In this document: positions 31,950 through 61,170 of the stretch, piece after piece
How positions within the stretch are numbered: the first letter of the stretch is position 1
Layout: every line of letters begins with the position of its first letter
Assembly (NCBI GenBank): GCA_001786765.1
Contig: MFTH01000010.1
Coordinates: forward strand, 34,105-98,104
Reading direction: 5' to 3'
Length of the DNA stretch: 64,000 nt
From: Candidatus Nomurabacteria bacterium RIFCSPHIGHO2_01_FULL_37_25
Lineage (GTDB): Bacteria; Patescibacteriota; Minisyncoccia; Phycocordibacterales; UBA9973
Made by a program: the position numbers and the translations under genes
Notes under the pieces: model-generated
The model's database searches: none
What the model saw: the letters and a program-made list of their open reading frames with translations, nothing else
Told to the model about the DNA's origin: nothing

Positions 31950-34418
31950 CTATTTCAGCAGTTCGTATTCAAACAATTTTGGCTGGATTTTTGTTTCATA
32001 ATATTTATTAAGTTTTGTTTTTAAAGCTAATAGTTTTGTATTTAGTTGAGGATGATCATAAATTATTATTTCATTTTCATCTTTATGGTTAGTATTGAGC
32101 TCATTGTCTATTTGATATGTTCCATAAGTGTATTTGAAATTGTAATTTTTGATTTTCTTAGCCTCACTTAACACTTCCTTGAATGAAGCTAAAAGTTCTT
32201 TTTCTGATTCTAAAAGTTTAAATGATTTCAATTTTTCCGTGGCAACCGTTTTACCATCAAAACATAATTCATTTCGATAAAATCTGCCATCGGAACCATC
32301 GAATGATCTGCACTTATTGAAATAAGATAGACACGTATAAATTAAACAGGATTTTAGAAAATCCTTATCATACGTATAAGCACTGCCACCATCAGATGTC
32401 TTGAAAATGGTACCTTTCTCCCACCAACGACTACCTGAATCATATTTACCAGCCGCAAAAAGTGGTAACTTTTCTAAATAATTACCGGTATGTATATAAA
32501 AACCATGACCATCATACAATCCGCAACGAACCATTGTTGTTGCCAGTCTAGGATGATCAAACCCGAACTCTCTTGAAACTAAATAACCGAGTATGGATTT
32601 ATTGAAGATTGGTTTAATCGAGGCCTTAGTATACTGCTTTTGTGTTTCTCTCCCATCTAACTCAAGTAGAACTCCGACATCATCACTGTTTGTTGCTTCA
32701 TATTTATCATATAATTTACTAATAAGATTATGCGCTTTTTTTACTTTAACCTTATGTAGAGGTGAGATATTCAAAACATTGGTATTTGAGGTACCTTGTA
32801 TATCTATATCGTAAGCCATTAATATAAGTTCTTCCTTTTTCTCATCTAAGTTTTGCCATAAAATACAACTGATTGCCGATGGACCAGCATGAAAATGTAC
32901 ACGATTAAACAAGAATCCATCAATAAATTTATGATCTCCGAGACTAAGCGATTTCCAGTACTTGATAGGACTAAACAATATAAAATAATCATCTGTTTTA
33001 TTTAGATAATATTTATAAGCACTTGAAATAAAAAGATTGGATAAGTCATTTAGTGCTGGTCCTTTTAACTCTCCTCGCAATTGTTCTTTTACATAACTCG
33101 TATAACCCTTAGTTGCATTGGTATGGCTATTGCTTGCAGTATCACGAAATGGTGGATTTTCTAATAAAATAATATTAATTTTTTTATCTTTTACAAAATT
33201 ATTCAACTCAAAAATAGAGTTAATATACTCCTTACTCATTTTTATTTTTCCTTTGCCGAGTATAAATTGCTCACTCAGTGCATCACCCCCATTAACTAAG
33301 GCCTCCTTACCAGAAATTTCACCTGGAGGCGGAATAATCATTTTTACTTTGTTGCCGATGCGTTCATTTAAAACAACCCATTCTTTCAATTCATAGGTGT
33401 TAACAATGGCGTGAGATAATTCATTGTCAAAAATATAATCTCTGATTTTAGTTTTTGTTGGAAATTTTTCAAGGTATTTAAGAGTTATTTGATTAACATC
33501 ATCAAGTTTTAATCTTTTTAGTATGTGGGGGATAAAGTTTGCTTTTTCTGAAATATATTTTTCAATAAACTCATCTGATAAATATTTTTGCAATTCACCA
33601 ATAGTAATATCATTTACCTGTTTATCAGTTAAGAATTCCAAAAGATTGCCGGTTCCAGCGCAACGATCAAGAATAATATAATCATTACTTTTCGGAATCT
33701 GAGCAATAGCTTTACGCACAAGCTCAATGGCTTTTTTGCAGTAGCTAGGAGGCGTATAAAAAGCACCGAGCTCCTTGCGGTGCATCTTATCATTTAGAAG
33801 ATCCATTATATATTTAAAGTCTTTTTCTTCTCCTTTCCATGGATAAATGAACCTTTTAAAATATTTTGGCTCACGAAATTCTTCAAATAATTTAATCTTA
33901 GTGGCTTTAGGATTTTCAGAATAAAAACGATTGGACCAACCGACAACGTCATAGATATCGATAGTCACTTTAGTAAAATTGTTTGTTTGCACTAATTCAA
34001 TGATGCGTTGAATTCCGACTGGTTTATCGTATTTAATAACCTCCGGTTTTATTATTGTACTAAACTTATCATTGCCCTTACTAGCAGCGCCGATAAAAGG
34101 AGGACAGTTAATATATTTATTGGCAAAATCTTGAGACTTAAAGAGGTAGGCAATTTCTTGATTCAGATCTACTAATAAAATGTTTGCAGGAATACTAACA
34201 CCCTTGACACGCATATGGTTTAGATATTTTAGCGCTTGAAAAAGGGTGGTATTGATATTATTTATGTTAAGTTTAAATTCAAATATATTTCCATTATAGA
34301 TACCGTCAGTATTGTTGCTAAGTTCGGTATCTGTAATACCAAATTTACCAAAAAATTCAATTTGCCCTTCGCGCTCAGATAGAAAATTATTTACAGATTT
34401 AAATGTTTTTTTTATCAT
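31950..34418 (-). CDS. MmeI-like type IIG restriction-modification enzyme (N-terminal PD-(D/E)xK-like D-x8-EFK, gamma-class N6-adenine methyltransferase core, C-terminal TRD-like region)
   Basis: Motif X GAFYTP, motif I DRCAGTGNLL, motif IV LLENPPF; N-terminal DGIYNGNIFEFK resembles the MmeI D-x9-ExK nuclease motif. Confidence 0.65.
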   Translation of the reverse strand: MIKKTFKSVNNFLSEREGQIEFFGKFGITDTELSNNTDGIYNGNIFEFKLNINNINTTLFQALKYLNHMRVKGVSIPANILLVDLNQEIAYLFKSQDFANKYINCPPFIGAASKGNDKFSTIIKPEVIKYDKPVGIQRIIELVQTNNFTKVTIDIYDVVGWSNRFYSENPKATKIKLFEEFREPKYFKRFIYPWKGEEKDFKYIMDLLNDKMHRKELGAFYTPPSYCKKAIELVRKAIAQIPKSNDYIILDRCAGTGNLLEFLTDKQVNDITIGELQKYLSDEFIEKYISEKANFIPHILKRLKLDDVNQITLKYLEKFPTKTKIRDYIFDNELSHAIVNTYELKEWVVLNERIGNKVKMIIPPPGEISGKEALVNGGDALSEQFILGKGKIKMSKEYINSIFELNNFVKDKKINIILLENPPFRDTASNSHTNATKGYTSYVKEQLRGELKGPALNDLSNLFISSAYKYYLNKTDDYFILFSPIKYWKSLSLGDHKFIDGFLFNRVHFHAGPSAISCILWQNLDEKKEELILMAYDIDIQGTSNTNVLNISPLHKVKVKKAHNLISKLYDKYEATNSDDVGVLLELDGRETQKQYTKASIKPIFNKSILGYLVSREFGFDHPRLATTMVRCGLYDGHGFYIHTGNYLEKLPLFAAGKYDSGSRWWEKGTIFKTSDGGSAYTYDKDFLKSCLIYTCLSYFNKCRSFDGSDGRFYRNELCFDGKTVATEKLKSFKLLESEKELLASFKEVLSEAKKIKNYNFKYTYGTYQIDNELNTNHKDENEIIIYDHPQLNTKLLALKTKLNKYYETKIQPKLFEYELLK

Positions 34419-34524: not shown

Positions 34525-35676
34525 TTATTTTTCGGCGCCACTAAACAAGCTAACATATTCATCATAAATATATGATTGACCATATTTCTTATCTTTATCT
34601 TTTGGAGTAAGAATCCCTATTTTTATAAATCTATCAATAACAGTCTGTGCTCCTGCGCGAGTAAACCCTGTCCATTTTTGAACGACAGTATTGTTTACGA
34701 TCGGTTGTCCGTAAAGTTTAGGTAAAACTTTAATGGCGCTTTCTGATGCTCGCTTACCCAATGTCTGTACTTTTCCCATATCCTGTTGGCGTAGCATGGT
34801 GATTTTGCCAACAATATCAATCGCCTCATTAGCAATCTCAATAACTCCATCAAGAAAAAAATCCACCCAATCAGACACAACCCCATGATGATAACCAAAA
34901 AGCTTCTCGTAATAGAGTTGCTGATGTTTCTTGAAGTAAGATGATAAGAAAAGTACCGGCTTCTCAAGAAATTTTTCTTTCCATAAATAGAAAGTGATGA
35001 GCATGCGACCCGTCCTGCCATTTCCATCAAGAAAAGGGTGGATTGTCTCAAATTGCGCGTGCAAAAGACCCGCCTTGATAACGGTCAAGGTCCCATCTTC
35101 ATCGTGCATATAATTCTCAAGATCGGTAAGCGCTTTATGCATCGCATCTACCGGAGGCGGTACAAATCGCGCGTTGTCGGGCCGAGTTCCTCCAATCCAG
35201 TTTTGAGTTTTACGAAACTCGCCAGGATCAGAAAAGTGAGTAGCTCTGGCTTTGTGCATCAATTTTTCGTGAAGTTCTCGGATGAACCGCAGAGTTAAGG
35301 GAAAGTCATCCGCCACTATGCGCTTCATTCCATAATTTAAAGCCTTAATGTAATGCAAAATATCATCAACATCTTCAGGAATGTTTGTATTGATTTTGAC
35401 TTCCGCCTCAATGGCATCAATCATCGTCGCCATAGTGCCCTCGATTTGGCTTGACGAGGCGGCGTCTTTGCGTAAGTACATAAGCAAGAAAAAATCAGCG
35501 TCAGGCAAAAGCTTGGTGATGCCATCTAATTTGCCAAGGAGCCGTGTTGCTTCGTTGTTTTTCTTAAGAATTTTTGAATCAAAATCAAAATTCTCTTTTG
35601 GCGGAAAAGGATTAGGAATAAAGGCTTTAAATCCTTCTTTTTGCTCTTTATTTATGCCAATTTGTATTGATTTCAT
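34525..35676 (-). CDS. Fic-family protein (AMPylator-type)
   Basis: HPFLDGNGRTGRMLITFYLW Fic motif, Fic_N region, C-terminal wHTH. Confidence 0.85.
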   Translation of the reverse strand: MKSIQIGINKEQKEGFKAFIPNPFPPKENFDFDSKILKKNNEATRLLGKLDGITKLLPDADFFLLMYLRKDAASSSQIEGTMATMIDAIEAEVKINTNIPEDVDDILHYIKALNYGMKRIVADDFPLTLRFIRELHEKLMHKARATHFSDPGEFRKTQNWIGGTRPDNARFVPPPVDAMHKALTDLENYMHDEDGTLTVIKAGLLHAQFETIHPFLDGNGRTGRMLITFYLWKEKFLEKPVLFLSSYFKKHQQLYYEKLFGYHHGVVSDWVDFFLDGVIEIANEAIDIVGKITMLRQQDMGKVQTLGKRASESAIKVLPKLYGQPIVNNTVVQKWTGFTRAGAQTVIDRFIKIGILTPKDKDKKYGQSYIYDEYVSLFSGAEK

Positions 35677-42515: not shown

Positions 42516-44564
42516 ATGAAAAAAAACCAAATAAAAAGACTCGAGGGTATCATGTCTATTTCCTCAAAAGGCGTTGGATATGTAAAAGTTCCAGAATTGA
42601 AAGAAGATATAGAAATTGATTCAAAATACTTGAATACTGCTATGCATGGAGATACTGTGGAAATCATTTTACATCCTAAAGAAAAAAGTCGCTCCGCTTA
42701 TGCCAAAGGCTACGGCGAGAGAAAACAAACAGCCGAAGTATCAAAAATAATTTCTCGTATTAAAACTTGTTTTGCCGGGGTTTTAGAATCGGAACCCTCT
42801 AAGTTTGGAACAAAAAATAATATTTATTTTTTGAAACCAGACGATACGAAAATGTACACAGATATTTTGATACCTGAAAGAGCGTTGCACGAAGCGAAAG
42901 CGGGGCAAAAAGTTTTTGTGGAAATAGTTTCATGGGAAAATGCAAACAAAGCGCCAGAGGGAAAAGTAATTAAAATTTTAGGTCAACCCGGAGATAATGA
43001 TACAGAAATGCATGCAATCGCCATGGAAAAAGGTTTTGATAGCGAATTTCCAAGAAAAGTGAAAGATGAGGCTAAAAATATCTCCGCCCACAATAAACAC
43101 GCGTCAGACAAAAAAGAAAATGATTATGCGGAACGACGCGATTTTAGAAAAATCTTAACTTTCACTATTGACCCAATAGACGCAAAAGACTTTGATGATG
43201 CAATTTCTTTCCAAGAATTAAAAAATAGCGAATACGAAATAGGTATTCATATCGCTGACGTTTCGCATTATGTAAAAGTCGGTAGCGCTCTTGATGATGA
43301 AGCGCGCCAGCGTGGAACTTCGGTGTATTTAGTAGATAGAACAATACCCATGCTCCCAGAAGAACTATCAAACGATTTATGCAGTTTAGTGCCAAATAAA
43401 GACAGACTCACAATGAGCGCAGTTTTTATAATAGACAAAAATGCCAAAATAAAAAGTGAGTGGTATGGACGCACTGTGATACATTCTCAAAAAAGATTTA
43501 CTTATGAAGAGGCTGGCGAGACAATCAAAAAAGCTAATGCTCCGCTCCATAAAGAATTATCAATCTTAAACAATCTGGCAAAAAAATTAACTTTAGATCG
43601 ATTTGCGCAGGGAGCAATATCTCTAGACCAAGAAGAAGTAAAATTTGTATTAGATCCTAAAGGAGTACCGATAAAAGTGGTGGTGAAAGAGCGTGGTGAT
43701 TCAAATAAGTTAATTGAGGAATTTATGCTTTTAGCTAATAAAAAAGTGGCTGAAGTATTATCTCCAAAATTATTTCAAGAGCGTCCTGATAAAAAAGCGG
43801 AAAAAGAAAATAGCGTATCTCTTTATCGCATACACGATTTACCCAGTAAAGAAAAAATGGCGGATTTGGCTTTTTTCTTACAAAGCTTGGGACACAAAGT
43901 AACTCTCCGAGATGGAATTATCCCCAGTTATGAGATAAATAATCTTCTGAAAAAATTAGCGGGGAAAAATGAAGAAAATACTGTGCAACGAGCAGTAGTG
44001 AGGTCTATGGCTAAAGCAATTTATTCCACTAAAAATATAGGACATTATGGGCTCGCATTTCCTTATTATACTCATTTTACTTCTCCAATTAGAAGATACC
44101 CAGACATTGTGGTGCATAGATTGCTCAATGATTATCTTGCAAAGAAAAAAGTTGGAAAAACCTCGCCCGACTCCCCCGTAAATATATGGCCAAAAGAAAA
44201 ATTGCTTGAATATGAAAAAATTGCCAGAATTTCATCCGAACAAGAAAAGCGCGCTTCTGACGCCGAAAGAATTTCAATAAAATACAAACAGGTTGAATAT
44301 ATGAGCAAACGTCTTGGAGAAAGTTTTGTGGGAGTGATAAGTGGCATAACAGAATGGGGTATTTATGTGGAAGAGATAGAAACCAAATGTGAAGGATTAG
44401 CGCGAGTGCGAGATATGAAAGACGACTTTTACATTTTTAATGAAAAAAAACTTGAATTGACTGGACAAAAAAACAAAAATAAATACCGTTTGGGTGATCG
44501 TGTTAAAATAAAAGTAAAGGGAGTTGATTTAGAAAGAAAAACAATAGACTATGTTTTGATATGA
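42516..44564 (+). CDS. rnr: Ribonuclease R (cold-shock, RNB and S1 domains)
   Basis: RNB catalytic motifs, C-terminal S1; ORF track begins at 42498, the second ATG at 42516 is more likely. Confidence 0.88.
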   Translation: MKKNQIKRLEGIMSISSKGVGYVKVPELKEDIEIDSKYLNTAMHGDTVEIILHPKEKSRSAYAKGYGERKQTAEVSKIISRIKTCFAGVLESEPSKFGTKNNIYFLKPDDTKMYTDILIPERALHEAKAGQKVFVEIVSWENANKAPEGKVIKILGQPGDNDTEMHAIAMEKGFDSEFPRKVKDEAKNISAHNKHASDKKENDYAERRDFRKILTFTIDPIDAKDFDDAISFQELKNSEYEIGIHIADVSHYVKVGSALDDEARQRGTSVYLVDRTIPMLPEELSNDLCSLVPNKDRLTMSAVFIIDKNAKIKSEWYGRTVIHSQKRFTYEEAGETIKKANAPLHKELSILNNLAKKLTLDRFAQGAISLDQEEVKFVLDPKGVPIKVVVKERGDSNKLIEEFMLLANKKVAEVLSPKLFQERPDKKAEKENSVSLYRIHDLPSKEKMADLAFFLQSLGHKVTLRDGIIPSYEINNLLKKLAGKNEENTVQRAVVRSMAKAIYSTKNIGHYGLAFPYYTHFTSPIRRYPDIVVHRLLNDYLAKKKVGKTSPDSPVNIWPKEKLLEYEKIARISSEQEKRASDAERISIKYKQVEYMSKRLGESFVGVISGITEWGIYVEEIETKCEGLARVRDMKDDFYIFNEKKLELTGQKNKNKYRLGDRVKIKVKGVDLERKTIDYVLI

Positions 44565-46504
44565 AACAAAATCTAAATCAAAAAACTTTACAGATAATTA
44601 AATTATTTTTTTGGACGCTATTTCCTATCATCTTAGGTGTTTTTCTTGTTTCACTTGTAATAATCATTTTTAATAAAATTAATTATGCGAAAATACAGGA
44701 AACAGGAAACAACACAGCAATAGCCATACAATCTCTAACTCCAGAAGAAATAAAAGAAGAAAAACCCAGATATTTCTATTTAAATAATGCTAGTGAAGAG
44801 CCTAAGGTCGGAGCCATTGCGTACTTGGTCGGAGACTTGAATACAGGCGAAGTAATACTGTCAAAAAATCAGAATCAGAAATTTCCAATCGCTTCTGTTT
44901 CTAAACTTATGACTGCATTGGTTACAAGAGAGATAACAAATCAAAATGATGTTGCGCAAGTAAGCAAAAAAGCTTTAGCCACAAAGGGCACAAATGGCAA
45001 TCTCCGGGTAGGAGAAAAAATAAAAACTACAGATTTATTATATCCCCTTCTTTTAGAATCAAGCAACGATGCCGCAGAAGTGCTCGCAGAACATTTTGGA
45101 CGAGACATTTTTATAAAAAAAATGAACCAACAATCTGAAATATTAAAAATGTCAGAAACATTCTATAAAGACCCGAGCGGGCTGTCAGAGAAAAATCAAT
45201 CAACCGTTTCAGATATATTTAAGTTAGTTGGATACTTGAATCAGCAAAAGAAAGATTTATTAGAGATAACAACAAAGCGAAGTTATTCAAATAAAAAACA
45301 CAGCTGGTCAAATATCAACCAATTCATACAAAAAGACGGATATTTTGGCGGCAAAAGCGGATATACAGACCCCGCTAAACAAACTGTCGTTTCTCTTTTC
45401 AATCTACCCCTTGGCCAAACGGGCTATCGCCCTATCGCTATCACTTTATTGCAAAGCGCTGATCGACAGAGGGACGTGGAAACTATTTTAAAATATTTAA
45501 ATAAAAATATATATTATGGAGGATCAGCCGATGCGAATACAAACTGGGTGGAAGAAAGGGTTGGTATGCCAAATATTAAAGACTTGGATTTCGTAACACT
45601 AGCTTTCGGGGGTGATATAATGCTTGATCGCGGAGTAAAAAATTCAGTCAGAAAAAATTTCAACAATGATTACTCTAAACTTTTTGAAAAACCAGATTTG
45701 GTTAACTTATTAAAAAAAGTTGACATTATCTTTGCTAATCTGGAAGGCGCAGCCTCAGATAAAGGCGCGGATTTAAAAAATTTATATTCTTTCAGGATGG
45801 ATCCGACGGTTGTCCCAGCTTTAAAAAATGCAGGTATGAGTATCTTGTCAGTAGCTAATAATCATATCGGGGACTTCGGTCGTATTGCTTTTATTGACAC
45901 ACTTGGGCTCTTAAAAGAAAATGAAATACTTTACACCGGAGGAGGAATAGATAAAACAGAAGCCGAAAAGCCTGTGATTATTGAAAAATACGGAATAAAA
46001 ATTGGATTTCTTGGTTTCTCAGACAAAGGACCGGACTACATGATAGCGGATAAAGAAAAAGCGGGCATACTTCTTGCAAATGATCCAAACTTTGATGAAA
46101 TAATAAAAAATGCTAGCGAACAAGTTGACTACCTGGTTGTCTCATTTCACTTTGGCGAAGAATATCAAACAAAACACAATGAAAGACAGAAATATCTGGC
46201 TCATAAAGCCGTGGACAATGGCGCAAAAATAATAATAGGACACCACCCGCATGTTATACAAGACACAGAAATTTATAAAAATAGTTTCATCATTTATTCA
46301 CTCGGAAATTTTATTTTTGATCAAACATTCAGCGCTGAAACCATGGAAGGTATGCTCCTTAATATTAAATTATGGAGAGACAGAAATATGACAGTTAGAA
46401 AAGACATACTAAAATTAAATAAAACTTTCCAACCGGATAAAATCATCAAAGGCAAAGAGGAAAAGATAAAATTTGAAGATACAAAAATACAAGAAAGATT
46501 ATGA
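44561..46504 (+). CDS. Fusion of D-alanyl-D-alanine carboxypeptidase (S11) with CapA/PgsA-type metallophosphatase domain
   Basis: SxxK motif (ASVSKLMTALV) in the N-half; CapA-like GGDIMLDRGV, HHPH motifs in the C-half. Confidence 0.7.
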   Translation: MKQNLNQKTLQIIKLFFWTLFPIILGVFLVSLVIIIFNKINYAKIQETGNNTAIAIQSLTPEEIKEEKPRYFYLNNASEEPKVGAIAYLVGDLNTGEVILSKNQNQKFPIASVSKLMTALVTREITNQNDVAQVSKKALATKGTNGNLRVGEKIKTTDLLYPLLLESSNDAAEVLAEHFGRDIFIKKMNQQSEILKMSETFYKDPSGLSEKNQSTVSDIFKLVGYLNQQKKDLLEITTKRSYSNKKHSWSNINQFIQKDGYFGGKSGYTDPAKQTVVSLFNLPLGQTGYRPIAITLLQSADRQRDVETILKYLNKNIYYGGSADANTNWVEERVGMPNIKDLDFVTLAFGGDIMLDRGVKNSVRKNFNNDYSKLFEKPDLVNLLKKVDIIFANLEGAASDKGADLKNLYSFRMDPTVVPALKNAGMSILSVANNHIGDFGRIAFIDTLGLLKENEILYTGGGIDKTEAEKPVIIEKYGIKIGFLGFSDKGPDYMIADKEKAGILLANDPNFDEIIKNASEQVDYLVVSFHFGEEYQTKHNERQKYLAHKAVDNGAKIIIGHHPHVIQDTEIYKNSFIIYSLGNFIFDQTFSAETMEGMLLNIKLWRDRNMTVRKDILKLNKTFQPDKIIKGKEEKIKFEDTKIQERL

Positions 46505-50061: not shown

Positions 50062-51072
50062 TTATTTTTTAAGCTTATCAACTTTTTTTTCATTCCCCTT
50101 TAATATATGAACTGCTTTTGCAATAAGCGGAATAATATCATTATAAATACGAAGCTCCGGCACTTCTGTCATCTCAAACCACCTAGCGCCATCAAGTCCA
50201 CCAGACTTTTCTAGCTCCAATTCTTTATACTCGCTATATGCCAAAAAGTAAACAACCTTCTTCAGACTTTTACCACGCTCTGGATGTGTCGCCACATATT
50301 CATTCCTTCCAAGTTCTTCTTTTATTACAATATCCAACCCAATTTCCTTTTTAATCGTTTTTATCGTGGCTTCTTTTATATCTTGATATTCTTCAGCTTT
50401 GCCTTTAGAAAGAGTCCAGTAGCCAAAGACGTCGTGCACAAATGCAAATAAAATAGTATTATCGGTTCCTGATTCTGAACTATTATATGAACCAGTAGGC
50501 TTTTTCGCATATACTAATGCGCCCACTAGATTCTCAACTGGCAATTGAGTAACATCTATTACTTCTTTCTGCTTTTTAGATTCAACATCATTTATATTTT
50601 TTTGATATGTTTTTTTATGTCCTTTGTCGGGCTCGCCTATTTCTTTGTAAACTGCGCCGAGCACACCATTTACAAATTTACCAGAATTTTCCCCGCCGAA
50701 AGTTTTAGCTAATTCTATAGCTTCATTGATTGCCACTTTCGGAGGCACCTGGGACCTATCACCAAACAAAAGTTCAGTTAACCCAATTCGTAGGATATTT
50801 CTATCAACAATAGAGATTTTATCTACCGGCCAGTCTGGCGCAGCCTTTTCCATAATCTCATCAATTATCACTCGCTTTTTTAAAATTTTATCGATTAAAG
50901 AAAATACAAAGGGATCTTCCTCAATCCCAGGAGCAAATTCTTTTAAATTTCTATTTAATGCCGTCTTTATATAGTCGTCAACAAAACTATCCCCTTTTTT
51001 TTCTATAGGTAAGAAATCCCACTCAAAAAGCGTTTGAAGCACTATTGATCTTGAAAGGTGCCTATTTGCCAT
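50062..51072 (-). CDS. nusB: NusB-like N-terminal domain fused to C-terminal NUDIX hydrolase
   Basis: NusB motifs (VDRNILRIGLTELLF, KFVNGVLGAV), then NUDIX box GKAEEYQDIKEATIKTIKKEIGL. Confidence 0.75.
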   Translation of the reverse strand: MANRHLSRSIVLQTLFEWDFLPIEKKGDSFVDDYIKTALNRNLKEFAPGIEEDPFVFSLIDKILKKRVIIDEIMEKAAPDWPVDKISIVDRNILRIGLTELLFGDRSQVPPKVAINEAIELAKTFGGENSGKFVNGVLGAVYKEIGEPDKGHKKTYQKNINDVESKKQKEVIDVTQLPVENLVGALVYAKKPTGSYNSSESGTDNTILFAFVHDVFGYWTLSKGKAEEYQDIKEATIKTIKKEIGLDIVIKEELGRNEYVATHPERGKSLKKVVYFLAYSEYKELELEKSGGLDGARWFEMTEVPELRIYNDIIPLIAKAVHILKGNEKKVDKLKK

Positions 51073-51094: not shown

Positions 51095-51319
51095 TTATTT
51101 TTCTGCTTGTTTTGCCTTTTCTTTCTTTTGTTTCTTTTCTGCTTTTTTGACTAAATCTAAAACTTTCTTTCCTCGATAAAAACCACAAGACGGACACACT
51201 ACGTGACGTCTTTTCAAAGCTTTGCAATTTTCACATTTGGAAAAACTTGTACTAGCTAAAGCGTGGTGAGAACGCCTATTTCCTGTATGCGATTTTGTGC
51301 TCCTCATTCGTACTACCAT
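51095..51319 (-). CDS. rpmF: 50S ribosomal protein L32
   Basis: MVVRMRSTKSHTGNRRSHHAL plus CxxC. Confidence 0.85.
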   Translation of the reverse strand: MVVRMRSTKSHTGNRRSHHALASTSFSKCENCKALKRRHVVCPSCGFYRGKKVLDLVKKAEKKQKKEKAKQAEK

Positions 51320-51459: not shown

Positions 51460-52080
51460 TTAAAATAAATGAAAATTTTTCTTTAACTTTTCTTCTCTTA
51501 AGAAGTTTTCTACAGTCAAAACCTCCACATATTTCCCCACTCCAAAGAAATCAGCAATAAAGATTATTTCGTCTTCACAAGGATAAGGATAAATCCAAGC
51601 GGATTTTTGAAATTGGAAAAAATTTAATTCTTTCAAATGATACCGTAATGCTTCTCTACCTTTTGTAAATCTCATCGGAATATCAAACATAACTAATCTC
51701 CATTTGCTATCCCATCTTTTTGGCTTGTTAATCTTCATCAGCTCAATATCGAAAGCTCTGAGTCTCGTATTTCCTTTTTTAGTAATTTTTACTATAGTTT
51801 TTCCGTTCTTGTCAGCGACATATTCTATGAGTTTTTGACGTCTAATATTATCAATAGCGCTTTGTATTTGTTTTTTAGAATACTTTTTAGATCCTTCAAA
51901 CATCTTAAAACATTGCACTGCATTACCCATAACTCCTGCGCCCAACACCAGCATAGGCATTAAAGATACAGCCAACACACAAAGAGCAACTGTGGAAATT
52001 TTTGCTTCAGTTGTATCAGACTCTAAAAAATCTTTTAATCTCTTTGAATACCCTGCTTTATTATTTTTTCCCATATACAT
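51460..52080 (-). CDS. PaaX-family-like regulator (N-terminal TM segment, wHTH, PaaX_C-like W..W.L..FDIP...LR..L...F.....S.W..P) bracketed by inverted half-palindromes
   Basis: RWDSKWRLVMFDIPMRFTKGREALRYHLKELNFFQFQKSAWIYP matches the PaaX C-terminal pattern; IRs at 51429-51447 and 52081-52099. Confidence 0.45.
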   Translation of the reverse strand: MYMGKNNKAGYSKRLKDFLESDTTEAKISTVALCVLAVSLMPMLVLGAGVMGNAVQCFKMFEGSKKYSKKQIQSAIDNIRRQKLIEYVADKNGKTIVKITKKGNTRLRAFDIELMKINKPKRWDSKWRLVMFDIPMRFTKGREALRYHLKELNFFQFQKSAWIYPYPCEDEIIFIADFFGVGKYVEVLTVENFLREEKLKKNFHLF

Positions 52081-55952: not shown

Positions 55953-56672
55953 ATGGAAACCAAGAAAAGACGGCGGAATCCCTGGGGCCCAGTTTTAAAA
56001 AATCCAAAGGCAACACAGGACACTGCAGTTGGGACTGCAGTTCCACCGCCACAGAAGAAACAAAAGATGGTGGAATGGCTGGTGGGGGGGATATTTATTT
56101 TTCTGGTCCTGGTATGCGGATTCTACTTTGAGTTCGCGTACCGAGTCCTGGCTGTAGTTGGGCTCGGGATCACCATGGCTGTACTCATGGTACAGTCTAT
56201 CTTCTCCGAGAAAGAGGTGAGTTTTTGGACCACCTTGGGAAAGGTTGTTGGAAACAACAACTGGATTTACTGGTGGATCTTCTTGTCTGGGATGGCTTGT
56301 CTCCTGATAGGATTTTTCTCAAACAACATTCCGAGAAAAATCTATACGGTGCTTGTCATAATAGACAATCCTGTAAGTCCCGGTAATTGGAGTAAGGCCG
56401 CAGAGAGTCTTACTCTAGAGGACCCTTTTAAAAACAACGACGACAACCCCTTCCTCGCAACAAACGAAGGAACTCAAGGCAGTTCCCTCTTCGCAGGAGA
56501 GGAGGCGAAATGGGGTTTCGCCGGTCTTCAATTCCTCTTGCTGGCTCTGCCAGCAAGGTTCGTCTCTTACTGGGACGAAATGAAGAGGAAGGCGAAAAAA
56601 AAGGAGAAGGGCCAGAGCTGGATTAGCTGGTTCTTCAGCCACGTCCTCTTTGAATTAATCTGGCCTGGGTAG
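55953..56672 (+). CDS. Hypothetical polytopic membrane protein (GC-rich island)
   Basis: GC-rich ORF with SD AAGGGAGAAGGAA before the ATG; several TM helices. Confidence 0.5.
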   Translation: METKKRRRNPWGPVLKNPKATQDTAVGTAVPPPQKKQKMVEWLVGGIFIFLVLVCGFYFEFAYRVLAVVGLGITMAVLMVQSIFSEKEVSFWTTLGKVVGNNNWIYWWIFLSGMACLLIGFFSNNIPRKIYTVLVIIDNPVSPGNWSKAAESLTLEDPFKNNDDNPFLATNEGTQGSSLFAGEEAKWGFAGLQFLLLALPARFVSYWDEMKRKAKKKEKGQSWISWFFSHVLFELIWPG

Positions 56673-56693
56673 GTAATAGAGGAGACCAAAAAT

Positions 56694-57206
56694 ATGCCGA
56701 GAATCTTCATAATGTTGGTGGTGTTGGTGCTTTCAATTTACTCTTTTGGATGCGGGGGGGAGAATAAGTATGAAAAGACCATAAGTTCTGCTGAAAAGCA
56801 GGACAGGGATAGCCCCCCTGCAAATTATGAAGAGGCGCAAAAACGCTTCAACCAAGTAGCCAAGTATCTTGACTACTTGGAGAAGCATCCGGAGAGTTCT
56901 TCCCCAGAACTCACAGCAAGGGCAAAGGCCCTGCTGGATAGCCGTAAAGCGGCGGCTATGGCTAAAGGATGGAATGTCGCCGCCGGAGCGCTAGAGAAGG
57001 TAGTGCAAAAGGCGAAGGAAGTGGCGAAGGAAGTGCTGGGCACCATTGGCGTCACAGACCTACCCAGCGCTGCCAAAAAGGTCGAGGAGGCAAGAGATTG
57101 GGTCCTTAGGGACCCGGAAAGAGAAGAACAGTTCTCCTGCAAGGATATCGACGGTAACCCCGTCGACGTCACGAAGGAAGGTTTTGCCCATCTCTGCGTA
57201 AGGTAG
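56694..57206 (+). CDS. Hypothetical lipoprotein (GC-rich island)
   Basis: Signal peptide with lipobox-like ...YSFGC, helical body. Confidence 0.5.
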   Translation: MPRIFIMLVVLVLSIYSFGCGGENKYEKTISSAEKQDRDSPPANYEEAQKRFNQVAKYLDYLEKHPESSSPELTARAKALLDSRKAAAMAKGWNVAAGALEKVVQKAKEVAKEVLGTIGVTDLPSAAKKVEEARDWVLRDPEREEQFSCKDIDGNPVDVTKEGFAHLCVR

Positions 57207-57264
57207 AAAGGAGGAAAAAACTTACGCAGGTGGGGAGGGTGCGCGACCCTATAACGCGCAAATT

Positions 57265-57298
57265 GGGCGGACTCAGAAATGAGTACCGCCCTTTTTTT
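57265..57298 (+). terminator. Rho-independent terminator
   Basis: GGGCGGactcagaaatgagtaCCGCCC plus TTTTTTT. Confidence 0.75.
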
Positions 57299-57350
57299 AT
57301 TTTAATATTATAAAATAAGGATAAAATAGCTTTTTTGTCAAGATTAAACC

Positions 57351-57556
57351 TTGACTTTTTCATTTTATTGTGCTATACTATAAAGGTAATCAGGTCTTTG
57401 AAAATATAATATGTTCTGAGTCATTCTTGAGCAGTTTGCCTATCAAGTAGCTAAAGAGATTTGGCTCTTTGCTTGGCAAACGAGCTCAAGGAATGGAAAC
57501 TTCTCTGGTGAAAGCCAGAGTACAAATGCGTCATCTTGACGCGAAAGGAGTCCACA
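57351..57556 (+). promoter_or_regulatory. Promoter (TTGACT-17-TATACT) plus ~170-nt structured leader, copy 2
   Basis: See copy 1; the ORF-track ORF 57469-57702 lies inside the leader and is probably not coding. Confidence 0.65.
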
Positions 57557-58654
57557 ATGTGGACATTGATTATTTTATTAGCGGCCAGTTACTGGGCATC
57601 CACTGGGATACCCGGGTGGCCGTTGTCAACATGGCAGACGTCCCTGGTGGCGGGAGCCCTATATGGGCTCTATCGACTGGCGTGCTGGATGCAGTGGATT
57701 GATGGTGGCCATCATACCACCACACCAGTTAGCACCGCCGCCGGACACAGTGGAGGAAGTGGTGGTATGTGGGGAGGGATACCAAAGCTAGGACTTTGGT
57801 ACGTTCTCACAACCGCCCTAATGATGATAGGTACATACATAGTCAACGTGCAAAACGTTGACATGTTTATGTATTTCATAACATTAGGGGGACGGTCGTG
57901 GATTTATCCTTTATCCACAACGGATGCTATCCTCTGGACGTCTACCCTGGCTCTCATGTCAGCGGTCGCCTGGCTAGCAGTGGAGGGGAGATGGCGACCG
58001 GCTGGATGGATATTCGGGATAACCTTTATAACTCTCCTTGTTTTTAGGGAGTTCGGTCCGTTCTTCGAGGCGATCCGGCCGATCCCGAGCTCCGGTCCTG
58101 TCACGCCGGGCATCGGCGAAAGTCAAGAGAGGGCGGACCTGAACGCCGCCCTAGTCAAGCGAGGAGCGCTCCCCGTAGCGGGGGAGGTGGTGGCCAAGTT
58201 TGGGTTCGGGGAGGTAGACCCAAAGGAAGGTTTCCTCCTCGGCCTGGTTTCCCGAGGGTGGGTGTGGTGGATGGGCGCACCCACCTACGACCCCAAGAAG
58301 GGGGCAGTCCTGGGGAGATTGTATCAGTTTTGGGAATGGGCGGCTGGAGAAAGCCCACTCCCATCTCGCGCGCCGGCGGTAGTGTTTTCCCCCACCCCTG
58401 CGCCGGCGGGACCGCTGAGAAGCTGTTCCGTCCCCTGCGAGATGTGGGTGGATTGGGAGGAGGACATCAAAACGGGTGGGCGAGACGTTTTGGTCCTCTT
58501 CCACGGAAAGGAGGAATGGTTCCGCCTTTCCGGAGGGAATGAAAAGGATATCCCCAGGGAGGTTTTCTCCCCCGGCAAGGCAAAGTTTGCTTTGCCGGAC
58601 GACGGCGACGACGCGTCGCCCATAATGGTAAAAATTTTCGCGGCGAAAAAATAA
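57557..58654 (+). CDS. Hypothetical polytopic membrane protein with Pro/Gly-rich C-terminal region (GC-rich island)
   Basis: ATG at 57557 preceded by AAAGGAG; ~8 TM helices; ORF-track start 57536 is a TTG upstream. Confidence 0.5.
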   Translation: MWTLIILLAASYWASTGIPGWPLSTWQTSLVAGALYGLYRLACWMQWIDGGHHTTTPVSTAAGHSGGSGGMWGGIPKLGLWYVLTTALMMIGTYIVNVQNVDMFMYFITLGGRSWIYPLSTTDAILWTSTLALMSAVAWLAVEGRWRPAGWIFGITFITLLVFREFGPFFEAIRPIPSSGPVTPGIGESQERADLNAALVKRGALPVAGEVVAKFGFGEVDPKEGFLLGLVSRGWVWWMGAPTYDPKKGAVLGRLYQFWEWAAGESPLPSRAPAVVFSPTPAPAGPLRSCSVPCEMWVDWEEDIKTGGRDVLVLFHGKEEWFRLSGGNEKDIPREVFSPGKAKFALPDDGDDASPIMVKIFAAKK

Positions 58655-58740
58655 AAATTTTTACCGCGAGCGCCTGACCAGCGCAAACGAGGTCAGAAAG
58701 GAGAAAGGCCACAATCGCGTCTGGCCAACGCACACAAAAG

Positions 58741-58773
58741 GGCGTCTCAACGAGACGCCCTTTTCTATTTTTA
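58741..58773 (+). terminator. Rho-independent terminator
   Basis: GGCGTCTCaacgGAGACGCC plus TTTTCTATTTTT. Confidence 0.8.
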
Positions 58774-58783
58774 CTAAACAGAA

Positions 58784-59107
58784 TTATGGATAATCAGGTA
58801 AATCTACTATCCCTTGTTCAGGATCTATCCCTTCTATGTTTGGGAAGGTGCTCAATATAACTCCAAGAATAGTCCAGACACCCATCATGATAGTCAATCC
58901 GACAACACCCCAAAGCATATGGCTCTTCCCGGTTGTCTTTTTCTCGTCATTACTCTGATTGTTAATGAATTGAAACATACCGAAAAGAAAATACGCCAAC
59001 GCTAAAGCGAAGAGCAACAGAATAAGCGGGTTTATAATTTCTCTATTAACATTCGCTATAAAACTATTCACGCTCGCATAAGCTATCTTTGTTTCAAATA
59101 AATCCAT
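58784..59107 (-). CDS. TrbC/VirB2-like pilin-family small membrane protein (paralog 1, no signal peptide)
   Basis: Two TM helices separated by a short charged loop; shares its core with the four downstream paralogs. Confidence 0.5.
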   Translation of the reverse strand: MDLFETKIAYASVNSFIANVNREIINPLILLLFALALAYFLFGMFQFINNQSNDEKKTTGKSHMLWGVVGLTIMMGVWTILGVILSTFPNIEGIDPEQGIVDLPDYP

Positions 59108-59118
59108 TGATTCTAAAA

Positions 59119-59511
59119 CTAGAAAGGAGTGGTTGGAAAAGTGATAGTTTGAGGATTTGTATCAATTCCAAAAGTGTTTGTTAGAATCTTTACGAGTCCC
59201 CATACGGTAACAATAACAGCCAAGCCAATTATGCCAAATATTATTCTGTCTCGTCCTTTCTTTTTTGCTTCTGCATCATCTCCAATAACATAAGAAATTA
59301 CTCCCCATACAAAGTAAATGACCCCTAAGATAATTATAATAGGAACAATTTGAGTAAAAAGTTGAGCTATCTTACATAAGATAGCTTCAATTGTGCCTGT
59401 ACCCACACTAGCACAATTAGTAGAAGTACCCCCCGTCGTCACCTGCGCCAATGCCATAACAGGCGCTAGACCTAAAACAAAACCCGACAAAACAATTAAT
59501 TTCTTTTTCAT
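59119..59511 (-). CDS. TrbC/VirB2-like pilin-family protein (paralog 2, with signal peptide)
   Basis: Signal peptide, then IIILGVIYFVWGVISYVIGDDAEAKKKGRDRIIFGIIGLAVIVTVWGLV core. Confidence 0.55.
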   Translation of the reverse strand: MKKKLIVLSGFVLGLAPVMALAQVTTGGTSTNCASVGTGTIEAILCKIAQLFTQIVPIIIILGVIYFVWGVISYVIGDDAEAKKKGRDRIIFGIIGLAVIVTVWGLVKILTNTFGIDTNPQTITFPTTPF

Positions 59512-59622
59512 CCCGTTTAGAAATTATGATATCCGTACATTACCTTTAGGTATATAAAGAAACACAATTCTTACTTTTATAATTTCTCCCGTTTTCTAAA
59601 TTTCTAACGGGATTCAAAACGA
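59512..59622 (-). promoter_or_regulatory. 5' leader inverted repeat (CCCGTTAGAAATT...AATTTCTAAACGGG-ATG) of pilin paralog 2
   Basis: 13/14-bp arms enclosing ~80 nt; 3' arm abuts the ATG. Confidence 0.45.
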
Positions 59623-59726
59623 CTTTGATAATAATTAATAATACTTAATAAAGAACTACCATGCTATTGTACCACAAACAGTATCAAAAAAGAAAGCAAG
59701 CCCCGTCTGAATAAAGACGCTGAAAG

Positions 59727-60302
59727 TTATGGGGGTGGTGTCTTAACTTGTGGAATAAAACTAGTGTTAATCCCAAAGGTAGTACCTAGTATTTCAACCA
59801 ACCCCCAAACGGAAACCATCACCGTCAAAGCAATCAACCCCCAAAGCATAAATTGCTTGCCTTTTTGCTTTTTCGCCTCTTCGTCGCTTTTGATAACATA
59901 CTGCACCACACCCCAGACAAACATCACCATCGCTAAAGCGAAAATAAGAGGAATGATAGCGTTGTTAATAATGGTGGTGATATAACACACAAGGTCTTGA
60001 AATCTCGGATAGGGACCAAGAGTTTGGCAAGTGTCTATGGGCTCAAAGACGGGCCCAGTTGCATTTGTAAGCCCGAAAGTTTCAGCAATAATGCTTACAA
60101 GTCCCCATACAGACACAATAACAGTCAAGCCAATGATGCCATATATTATTCTATCTCTCCCTTTCTTTTTTGCTTCATCACCGCCCCCTATAACATACTG
60201 CACCACGCCCCAGACAAAATAGACCACTCCTAAAGCAACCAAAACAGGAATGATTGAACTAAGAATATTATACGCCTCAAATATTAAATCCTCTATGGTC
60301 AT
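59727..60302 (-). CDS. Tandem-duplicated TrbC/VirB2-like pilin-family protein (two complete core modules in one ORF)
   Basis: Two copies of ...LGVVYFVWGVVQYVIGGGDEAKKKGRDRIIYGIIGLTVIVSVWGLV... / ...LAMVMFVWGVVQYVIKSDEEAKKQKGKQFMLWGLIALTVMVSVWGLV... Confidence 0.55.
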   Translation of the reverse strand: MTIEDLIFEAYNILSSIIPVLVALGVVYFVWGVVQYVIGGGDEAKKKGRDRIIYGIIGLTVIVSVWGLVSIIAETFGLTNATGPVFEPIDTCQTLGPYPRFQDLVCYITTIINNAIIPLIFALAMVMFVWGVVQYVIKSDEEAKKQKGKQFMLWGLIALTVMVSVWGLVEILGTTFGINTSFIPQVKTPPP

Positions 60303-60320
60303 GATTTTAATTCTTAAATT

Positions 60321-60731
60321 TTACGGTCCAAGCTCGGTAACGGTAGCTGATATGAGTTCTGCGATAGCCCACGACCCTAAGAGTATCGCCGCGCCGATCA
60401 AAGTATATAAGAGAGCGTTTTTAGCTTTAGTTAATTTTTCTGAATTGCCCATCGCTGATACAAAAAGAAAACCGCAATAAATGACAGCCAGAGCGACAAT
60501 GGGAATGCCTATTTTTAGCACACCTTCTAAAAGAACCTTGATAAATTCCTGAATGGTATTTGTGCTTATTGGGTTGCAAATTTTATCTTTACAAAGGTCA
60601 GAAGGAGTAGTACCCTGAATAGGTTCAGGAGAAGTAGTCTCTGCAAAAGAAAGAGCTGGCGCCGTAATCAAAAAAGCCATTAAAATTATTCGAAATAAAT
60701 TTTTAGTCAGATTTTTCTTAAAAAAATTCAT
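60321..60731 (-). CDS. TrbC/VirB2-like pilin-family protein (paralog 4; likely start MNFFKKNL)
   Basis: Signal peptide, core IPIVALAVIYCGFLFVSAMGNSEKLTKAKNALLYTLIGAAILLGSWAIAELI. Confidence 0.5.
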   Translation of the reverse strand: MNFFKKNLTKNLFRIILMAFLITAPALSFAETTSPEPIQGTTPSDLCKDKICNPISTNTIQEFIKVLLEGVLKIGIPIVALAVIYCGFLFVSAMGNSEKLTKAKNALLYTLIGAAILLGSWAIAELISATVTELGP

Positions 60732-60759
60732 ATTTAGATTACTTATATTATACATCATT

Positions 60760-61170
60760 TCAAAAAAATCTATCAATATCCTTATAACCTAAAATTGATA
60801 GTAAGGTTTTAACAATAAGCCAAGCGGCGGCGGCAAGGACAAGCCCGATAACGGCATTAGTAAAAATATTCTTTGCTTTTCCCCTAGCTTCTGTACTACC
60901 GCCAGAAGTTACGAGTTTAAAACCAGCGTAAAAGAACATTATGGCGGCGATAGGTATAGCCATATAGAAAAGAATAAAATCAATAATATTGTTTATAAGC
61001 TTCATAAAAGCGGTGAAATTGCATGGCTCCGCAATTGTTCCACTATCATCTGGAGTATTATTGCAAGGAACCAACCCTTTTAATGGATCAAAAGCGGCAA
61101 AAGAAATAACAGGCGCCACAAGCATTAAAAACACAGCGAGGGAAATAAAAAATTTTGTTGTTTTTGTCAT
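60760..61170 (-). CDS. TrbC/VirB2-like pilin-family protein (paralog 5)
   Basis: Signal peptide, core IPIAAIMFFYAGFKLVTSGGSTEARGKAKNIFTNAVIGLVLAAAAWLIV. Confidence 0.5.
   Translation of the reverse strand: MTKTTKFFISLAVFLMLVAPVISFAAFDPLKGLVPCNNTPDDSGTIAEPCNFTAFMKLINNIIDFILFYMAIPIAAIMFFYAGFKLVTSGGSTEARGKAKNIFTNAVIGLVLAAAAWLIVKTLLSILGYKDIDRFF

Follow-up and report, generated by a model that had tools for sequence, protein, structure and literature searches.

The 64,000-nt stretch of the genome of Candidatus Nomurabacteria bacterium RIFCSPHIGHO2_01_FULL_37_25 analyzed here (contig MFTH01000010.1 of assembly GCA_001786765.1, positions 34,105 to 98,104; hereinafter the window, to which all coordinates refer) encodes, on the minus strand, a protein in which the transcription factor NusB is fused to a C-terminal Nudix-fold domain. 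We cautiously favor the interpretation that this protein combines a functional NusB with a tethered Nudix pseudo-enzyme that is derived from an Ap4A (diadenosine tetraphosphate) hydrolase and would bind, but not hydrolyze, either a nucleotide polyphosphate or the 5' end of an RNA. A binder rather than a hydrolase is suggested because the catalytic Nudix box is largely lost, the residues that correspond to the phosphate- and adenine-binding residues of Ap4A hydrolases are near-invariant, and purifying selection on the domain appears undiminished.

NusB is a core, near-universal factor of transcription and ribosome biogenesis that normally consists of a plain domain of ~140 residues; together with ribosomal protein S10 (NusE), it binds the BoxA RNA, giving rise to the rRNA antitermination/processing complex. 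The attachment of a Nudix module to this factor in hundreds of uncultivated, genome-reduced species of the candidate phyla radiation, where it is hidden behind the annotation "NusB", suggests that rRNA transcription and processing might be coupled to the chemistry of nucleotide polyphosphates or RNA 5' ends in a manner unseen in model bacteria.

Architecture of the NusB-Nudix fusion

The gene and the parts of its product are as follows:

50062..51072, minus strand: complete nusB::nudix open reading frame (ORF), 336 amino acids (aa) plus stop codon, ATG start, no interruption
50638..51072, minus strand: NusB domain, residues 1-145, all-helical, with a conserved BoxA-binding surface
50545..50637, minus strand: inter-domain linker, residues 146-176, Lys/Glu-rich, poorly conserved, predicted to be disordered
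50101..50544, minus strand: Nudix-fold domain, residues 177-324, Ap4A/Ap6A-hydrolase-like, supported by PF00293, AlphaFold2 (AF2), Foldseek and hhalign
50455..50499, minus strand: residues 192-206, a low-complexity stretch inserted into the first beta-hairpin of the Nudix domain, aligned with gaps in most homologues
50335..50403, minus strand: degenerate Nudix box, residues 224-246, GKAEEYQDIKEATIKTIKKEIGL, in the register given by the alignments to Ndx1 and NUDT2

The initial annotation of this locus, made from the sequence alone, described a NusB and a Nudix domain in one ORF directly upstream of rnc, and this description is borne out, with both Pfam domains scoring above their cut-offs. The NusB family (PF01029) matches residues 7-143 (E-value 2e-32, 112.8 bits against a gathering score of 23.1) and the NUDIX family (PF00293) matches residues 217-314 (E-value 7e-8, 32.9 bits against a gathering score of 21.1). 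The frameshift or stop codon between the two domains that the same annotation had considered as a possible flaw is not there: the ORF is uninterrupted, and 21 contigs of independent assemblies, from several ENA metagenomes and from NCBI GCA_001786875.1, encode the identical 336-aa protein with the same neighbors. That a frameshift in sequencing or assembly, or the loss of a stop codon, joined two adjacent genes, nusB and a Nudix gene, is a practically negligible prospect given this recurrence of the identical ORF in independent samples, the presence of the same architecture in at least 581 GTDB species genomes as well as thousands of database proteins, and the linker that stays in frame in all aligned homologues; we therefore rejected an artefact of this kind.

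In the AF2 model, the linker is predicted to be disordered (residues 148-172, with the predicted local distance difference test score, pLDDT, below 50), and the packing of the NusB and Nudix domains against each other is modelled without confidence (predicted template modelling score, pTM, 0.49). According to the model and the alignment, the linker leaves the NusB domain at helix alpha7, the BoxA-binding helix.

The NusB half

On sequence and modelling criteria, the N-terminal half is an orthodox NusB because it passes the NusB equivalog model, has the NusB fold and conserves the residues of the BoxA-binding surface. The window protein scores 113.9 bits with TIGR01951 (cut-off 88.35), and divergent fusions score 117-126 bits. 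The AF2 model places helices across residues 4-145, in an all-helical NusB domain, and Foldseek matches this half to the NusB structures 1eyv, 1tzv, 3r2c and 3r2d at a TM-score (TMt) of 0.79-0.82, the Aquifex NusB-NusE-BoxA complex included. The BoxA-surface residues of E. coli NusB are F122, K101-E106, E81, E117, D118 and K121 (PMC3177189). Mapped by alignment to the E. coli and Aquifex proteins, the contact residues correspond as follows:

E. coli F122: F133 in the window protein
E. coli K101-E106 ('KVAINE'): K112-E117, identical
E. coli E81: D90
E. coli E117: E128
E. coli K121: K132
E. coli D118: N129, the residue found in the high-affinity D118N variant (PMC3177189)

A further 117 fusions have F133, N116 and D90 without exception (100% conservation). 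Thus, the N-terminal 145 residues share both the all-helical fold and the BoxA-contact residues with NusB (PF01029/TIGR01951; 3D3B, 3R2C). The difference is that classical NusB is a stand-alone protein of ~140 aa, whereas the window protein carries ~190 additional C-terminal residues that comprise the linker and the Nudix domain.

Elsewhere in the 64-kb window, no second NusB gene, second Nudix gene or canonical Nudix box was found, and the window contains neither an S10 gene nor an rRNA operon. BoxA-like elements (GCTCTTTAACA, with up to 2 mismatches) are no more frequent than chance would have it in this DNA that lacks an rRNA operon (25 matches against 28.8 expected).

A different reading of the N-terminal half would be that it is not a true NusB but a NusB-like RNA-targeting domain which, as in RsmB, brings the Nudix domain to rRNA, with a separate NusB responsible for antitermination. 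Enzymes fused to NusB-like domains do exist: in RsmB/Sun, the 16S rRNA m5C967 methyltransferase, a NusB-type domain is covalently linked to an enzyme domain of rRNA biogenesis, which provides a precedent, and the window protein yields weak NCBIfam matches to the RsmB N-terminal region (49 bits against a cut-off of 319), which are explained by the NusB-type domain common to both. However, the NusB-like domain of RsmB is divergent and its partner is a methyltransferase, in contrast to the orthodox NusB and the Nudix fold in the window protein. With TIGR01951 passed by the window protein and by divergent fusions, the BoxA-contact residues, including F122 and 'KVAINE', identical to those of E. coli NusB, a window without a second NusB, and NCBI annotation that names these proteins NusB, we consider this alternative highly improbable.

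The Nudix domain and its degenerate box

The Nudix box of the window protein, GKAEEYQDIKEATIKTIKKEIGL, corresponds to Gx5Q-x7-K-T-I-K-K-E-I-G-L, compared with the consensus Gx5E-x7-R-E-U-x-E-E-x-G-U. The glycines and the hydrophobic positions of the box are retained, but among the five key polar positions only E243 is unchanged, the other four being replaced (E to Q230, R to K238, E to T239 and E to K242). The canonical REx2EE residues envisaged in the initial annotation are accordingly not found, the segment reading K-T-I-K-K-E. In terms of human NUDT2, the replaced positions are E49 (Q230), R57 (K238), E58 (T239) and E61 (K242), and E62 is the one kept, as E243.

The consequences of comparable changes are known from other Nudix proteins. 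NUDT9 with the box RILGEE or REFGKK is inactive, and in nvNUDT9-H the replacement of EF by IL leaves ~1% of kcat and that of EE by KK ~0.1%, with KM unchanged (PMC6461439). The human Ap4A hydrolase structure 4ijx is that of the E58A mutant, and E58 corresponds to T239 of the window protein. Because the box of the window protein combines both kinds of lesion, pyrophosphohydrolase activity of this protein is, judging by the motif, very unlikely.

In the AF2 prediction, residues 179-324 form an alpha/beta/alpha sandwich, the Nudix helix of which spans 232-244, and the fold of the model is closest to Ap4A/Ap6A hydrolases, not to RppH. The best Foldseek matches are Aquifex aq_158 (3i7u, TMt 0.87) and Thermus thermophilus Ndx1 (1vc8, 0.83), with E-values to Nudix hydrolases of 1e-7, followed among the hydrolases of dinucleoside polyphosphates (ApnA) by Chlamydia CT771 (TMt 0.73-0.76), human NUDT2 (0.72), C. 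elegans 1ktg (0.75) and the Plasmodium Ap4A hydrolase. Other matches include MutT1/Rv2985 of mycobacteria and the Nudix domain through which NrtR binds its effector (3GZ8); Dcp2 is found lower in the list and the Bdellovibrio RppH (BdRppH, 3EES) at rank 50. The profile alignments made with hhalign agree, with probabilities of 97.8% to NUDT2 and 98.6% to Ndx1. Thus, Ap4A/Ap6A hydrolases (3I7U, 1VC8, NUDT2 3U53 and CT771) are the best structural matches of the domain (TMt 0.72-0.87), and they have in common with the window protein the 'W-x-x-P/S-K-G' entry into the box as well as a Tyr downstream of it. The differences are the weak sequence identity (18-22%) and the fusion of the window domain to NusB.

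In sequence, the domain appears to form a small subfamily of its own: when 1.84 billion representatives were searched exhaustively with phmmer, only 277 matches at E-values of up to 1e-3 were obtained, and a NusB N-terminus is present in 61 of the best 150. Two proteins from this search differ in their architecture. One, of 577 aa (P0221), contains a NusB-like region and a Nudix domain at residues 432-552, and the other, of 291 aa (P0234), contains two matched Nudix stretches and no NusB; therefore, other architectures of this Nudix subfamily exist.

The insertion at residues 192-206 comprises ~15 residues, is rich in Ser, Thr and Gly, and is found only in the window protein and a minority of its homologues, that is, it is lineage-specific; residues 195-204 have pLDDT values below 50 and are predicted to be disordered.

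The retained binding pocket

A profile alignment of the fusion family to human NUDT2, made with hhalign, provides the equivalents of the substrate-binding residues:

NUDT2 W38: W219 in the fusion family
NUDT2 K42: K223
NUDT2 Y82: Y259 ('NYVA' aligned with 'EYVA'; also aligned with the Tyr of Ndx1)
NUDT2 K89: K271
NUDT2 F128: Y310
NUDT2 E130: D312

In NUDT2, the P1-phosphate site is made up of K42, Y82 and K89 (Lys94 of the Plasmodium falciparum enzyme); Y82, together with F128, also stacks on the adenine, the amino group of which is hydrogen-bonded by E130 (PMC4734340). A Tyr or Phe ~17 residues past the box is a mark of Ap4A hydrolases (PMC2425470). In the fusion family, the spacing of Y259 from the box is 13 residues, the loop being four residues shorter, as it is in Ndx1, and this position is occupied by Tyr in 237 of 242 fusions and in all 117 of an independent set. 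Across the same two sets, K223, Y259, K271, Y310 and D312 are 97-100% conserved. The alignment to solved Ap4A hydrolases suggests that the conserved residues cluster around one pocket. Hence the pattern of conservation indicates that the substrate-binding half of the Ap4A-hydrolase active site is preserved and the metal-binding half is lost.

Decay of the box and constraint on the domain across the family

Among the fusions, the box is found in widely varying states. With the five key positions written in order, the 120 closest homologues include EREEE (22), EREKE (7), ERKEE (11), ERAKE (16), EKAKE (27), GKAKE (10) and QKTKE (7), the last class being the small tip clade to which the window protein belongs. 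Among 359 fusions, all five positions are canonical in 142 (~40%), four in 74, three in 52, two in 47, one in 43 and none in a single protein. In the sample nearest to the center of the family, the box is canonical in 71 of 117 fusions, and because boxes are thus canonical in the family core, the ancestral protein was, as far as motifs tell, probably a competent, NusB-tethered hydrolase.

The only Nudix positions that are conserved in members with a canonical box but not in those with a degenerate box are 230, 238, 239 and 242; the converse, a position conserved solely in degenerate-box members that might compensate for the loss, was not seen in this position-by-position comparison. On a neighbor-joining tree of 242 fusions, calculated from distances without the box columns, changes from canonical to non-canonical or back occur 34-43 times at these four positions, compared with 1-4 changes at the control positions W219, K223, D214, Y259, W298 and Y310 and 7-8 at E243; the absolute counts are inflated by errors in the neighbor-joining topology, so that only the contrast with the control positions is robust.

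The loss of the box is not accompanied by signs of relaxed selection on the Nudix domain. When compared at matched NusB divergence in the 359 fusions, the Nudix/NusB divergence ratios are 1.45, 1.14, 1.63 and 1.44 in degenerate members and 1.57, 1.37, 1.41 and 1.24 in canonical ones. The linker diverges ~2.5 times faster, with a p-distance of 0.47-0.54 where that of NusB is 0.18-0.20. Because degenerate members diverge no faster than canonical ones, the Nudix domain is, on these comparisons, not decaying, and the catalytic residues alone appear to be dispensable.

These observations bear on the proposal, made in the initial annotation, that the fusion tethers an RppH-like RNA pyrophosphohydrolase to NusB. 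In its full form, this explanation holds that NusB carries an active RppH-like 5'-pyrophosphohydrolase or decapping enzyme, which leaves the nascent rRNA leader with a 5'-monophosphate in place of its triphosphate or cap and so triggers decay of the leader after cleavage by RNase III. The Nudix fold is indeed confirmed and is shared with RppH (E. coli NudH-type, BdRppH 3EES and B. subtilis YtkD-type), ~40% of the family has a canonical box, and the RNA-end enzymes Dcp2 and BdRppH are among the fold neighbors; moreover, action on RNA 5' ends would fit the NusB tether, which holds the domain beside the BoxA-binding helix alpha7, and the rnc neighbor in a conserved gene cluster. However, the catalytic glutamates are absent from the window protein, the box of which is Q/K/T/K/E instead of E/R/E/E/E, and comparable substitutions abolish the activity of NUDT9 and nvNUDT9-H (kcat ~0.1-1%; PMC6461439). 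An NCBIfam scan of the window protein, six fused relatives with a canonical box and two stand-alone Nudix relatives also argues against RppH. Of the models PRK00714 (RppH) and TIGR02705 (YtkD), neither gave an RppH match to the window protein at E-values of up to 1, and even the canonical-box relatives score at most 37.4 bits with RppH (cut-offs 116-259), 22 with YtkD (154) and 41 with MutT (97.9). None of the named Nudix equivalog models is reached by the window protein or by its canonical-box relatives; with all scanned proteins far below every RppH, YtkD, MutT, NudC and NudE cut-off, RppH membership was rejected. In addition, Ap4A/Ap6A hydrolases are structurally much closer (TMt 0.83-0.87) than BdRppH at rank 50, and the catalytic positions are among the least constrained of the domain, which would be unexpected were hydrolysis the selected function. 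The RppH-like proposal thus finds no support for the window copy, in which four of five box positions are substituted, and we consider it decidedly unlikely. For the ~40% of members with a canonical box, an RNA-end-directed or nucleotide-directed hydrolase coupled to NusB is plausible.

Functional interpretation

Under the interpretation that we favor, the NusB half would work as NusB in rRNA antitermination, and the Nudix half would bind, without hydrolyzing it, the adenine-nucleotide polyphosphate moiety of a ligand within linker reach of the BoxA-bound nascent transcript. Candidate ligands are a free dinucleoside polyphosphate or ATP, or else the 5' end of the nascent leader RNA, with its triphosphate or an Np4A cap. 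In the canonical-box relatives, the same module probably still hydrolyzes its ligand. Any effect on antitermination or on RNase III processing is one that we infer.

Non-catalytic Nudix domains in other systems provide precedents, and the window protein shows the feature that characterizes such binders, a decayed box in an otherwise constrained domain. The Nudix domain of NrtR has a non-catalytic role: in this bacterial transcription regulator, it serves as the effector (ADP-ribose)-binding module, and the NrtR structure 3GZ8 is among the top fold matches of the window domain. NrtR combines its Nudix domain with a winged-helix DNA-binding domain and regulates NAD metabolism genes, whereas the Nudix domain of the window protein is joined to an antitermination factor that binds RNA. 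Functionally, the nearest counterpart of a non-catalytic Nudix module in RNA biogenesis is CF Im25/NUDT21, the 25-kDa subunit of mammalian cleavage factor Im, in which a Nudix fold is part of an RNA-processing machine and binds Ap4A with a dissociation constant of 2.4 uM without hydrolysis (PMC2425470). This protein differs in being eukaryotic, stand-alone, involved in mRNA 3'-end processing and endowed with a ligand site that lies partly outside the classical pocket; a specific sequence relationship between it and the Nudix domain of the fusions was not seen. The closest evolutionary parallel is NUDT9-H of the TRPM2 channel, likewise a Nudix domain fused to another module, which is canonical and active in invertebrates and inactive in vertebrates, so that a box active in early-branching lineages became vestigial in a derived clade with the binding of ADP-ribose kept (PMC6461439). 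The evolutionary pattern in the NusB fusions is the same, but TRPM2 NUDT9-H is of the ADP-ribose pyrophosphatase type, belongs to an animal ion channel and lost its box once, whereas the boxes of the NusB fusions decayed many times.

Several considerations weigh against a bound and unhydrolyzed ligand, in addition to the inflated switch counts mentioned above. The loss of hydrolysis is deduced from the decay of the motif, some Nudix-fold enzymes function with atypical boxes, and acidic residues (E243, E227, E228, D231, E234 and D294) remain in the Nudix domain of the window protein, so that weak or altered catalysis may persist. The canonical and degenerate groups are, furthermore, phylogenetically structured. 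Finally, the conserved 'pocket' residues might instead serve the stability of the fold or a protein-protein contact.

The last point leads to the possibility that the module is purely architectural, with the Nudix domain presenting a protein-protein or protein-RNA surface of the antitermination complex and no small ligand involved. Such a role would be consistent with purifying selection on a domain devoid of catalytic residues and with the conservation of the fusion and of the gene cluster. It would also have an analogy in SuhB, a protein with the inositol-monophosphatase fold that has a structural role in the E. coli rrn antitermination complex. Nevertheless, the invariant K223, Y259, K271, Y310 and D312 are equivalents of adenine-stacking and phosphate-binding residues, a pattern more specific than upkeep of the fold would need; the AF2 model, with its disordered linker and pTM of 0.49, gives no fixed contact with the NusB half; and no partner has been identified. 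We consider a purely architectural role unlikely.

The preferred binding module can be extended to a fairly improbable but consequential scheme, in which the fusion is a nucleotide-sensing antitermination factor. The decayed Nudix domain would then be a receptor for an ApnA alarmone, or for a 5'-triphosphate or Np4A-capped pre-rRNA leader, that tunes the assembly of the antitermination complex and of the co-transcriptional loop cleaved by RNase III. If true, this would be a direct, previously unknown link of ApnA or 5'-end chemistry to ribosome biogenesis in the reduced genomes of Patescibacteria, and the canonical-box relatives would represent a hydrolyzing, signal-terminating version of the same device. 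Taken as a whole, the family grades naturally from canonical to completely decayed motifs while its binding pocket stays invariant, which makes it suited to asking what Nudix pseudo-enzymes do. At the level of annotation, the Pfam NUDIX match in these proteins should not be propagated as "hydrolase".

Distribution and genomic context

The fusion is a trait of a clade of Patescibacteria (Paceibacteria, Nomurabacteria and their relatives). A scan of one genome per GTDB species found a full-length fusion match in at least 581 species genomes; the taxa among the matches listed are Nomurabacteria, Yonathbacteria, Lloydbacteria, Paceibacterota, Parcubacteria and Patescibacteria. A word-indexed search returned at least 8000 matches, the best 120 of which, at 69-100% identity, all contain both domains in full and measure 298-381 aa, and a profile of the most divergent fused representatives retrieved only proteins with both PF01029 and PF00293, including those of Giovannonibacteria, Minisyncoccia and Paceibacterota.

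The genes that surround the fusion in the window, all on the same strand, are the following:

51095..51319, minus strand: rpmF, ribosomal protein L32 (Pfam Ribosomal_L32p), which ends 22 nt before the fusion start codon
49355..50050, minus strand: rnc, RNase III (Pfam Ribonuclease_3 and dsrm), which starts 11 nt past the fusion stop codon
47156..49339, minus strand: short SMC-like ATPase of 727 aa (Pfam SMC_N, split across residues 3-712)

The next gene after the SMC-like gene, in the same orientation as the fusion, is maf. Unlike the nusB contexts known from model bacteria, the fusion gene adjoins rpmF and rnc, and this arrangement is widely shared. Among 80 related loci, rnc is located downstream of the fusion in all 80 and the L32 gene upstream in 77, the other three having less than 260 nt of upstream sequence; an SMC-like gene comes next after rnc in every related locus that reaches far enough. 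Thus, the fusion is old and fixed in a large clade of Paceibacteria, inside a conserved rpmF - nusB::nudix - rnc - smc cluster. A scan of 46.0-52.6 kb for promoters and terminators performed no better than on shuffled sequence, so the operon boundaries cannot be defined in that way.

The product of the 727-aa 'SMC' gene appears to be a miniature SMC-like ATPase, with the head domain split over residues 3-712 and no detected hinge domain; the 3' end of this gene overlaps the start of maf by 26 nt.

The sources that name the fusion proteins call them just "NusB", with the sole exception of a JGI entry (P0172) labelled "8-oxo-dGTP diphosphatase". No description of a NusB-Nudix fusion was found in the literature searched, as judged by titles and abstracts, and in databases the fusion is visible only as an unremarked co-occurrence of Pfam domains. 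Already known are NusB itself, Ap4A-hydrolase-like Nudix domains, Nudix pseudo-enzymes and the fusion of a NusB-like domain to an rRNA enzyme (RsmB). An account of a bona fide NusB that is covalently linked to a Nudix domain throughout a clade, and in which the catalytic motif has repeatedly been lost, was not found in that literature.

Other features of the window

Several other loci in the window are unusual. Between thrS and rpmF, the product of a minus-strand gene (51460-52080) is 206 aa long and combines a PaaX_M (Cas2-like) domain with an N-terminal segment that is predicted to lie in the membrane; the near-identical contigs share this gene, but it was not detected at the same place in any of the 80 related loci, and two of these have it elsewhere.

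A GC-rich island at 56000-59000 reaches 44-62% GC per 500 nt, with the peak at 58001-58500, in a genome of ~35% GC. It contains three plus-strand ORFs (55953-56672, 56694-57206 and 57536-58654) with membrane- or secreted-like products, for which searches gave no Pfam match, no Rfam match and only one marginal PHROG match. This island may be horizontally acquired DNA or an assembly chimera. Four small minus-strand genes in tandem (59119-61170) each encode a T4SS_pilin (PF18895) domain and are adjoined by the gene for a solute-binding protein.

An 822-aa ORF on the minus strand (31950-34418) that belongs to no Pfam family and has only a marginal PHROG match adjoins a Fic/DOC gene (34525-35676). 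Finally, a plus-strand ORF of 647 aa (44561-46504) combines an N-terminal half homologous to D-Ala-D-Ala carboxypeptidases (Peptidase_S11) with a C-terminal PGA_cap half (capsule synthesis, CapA-like); this ORF has a 4-nt overlap with the RNase R gene upstream of it.

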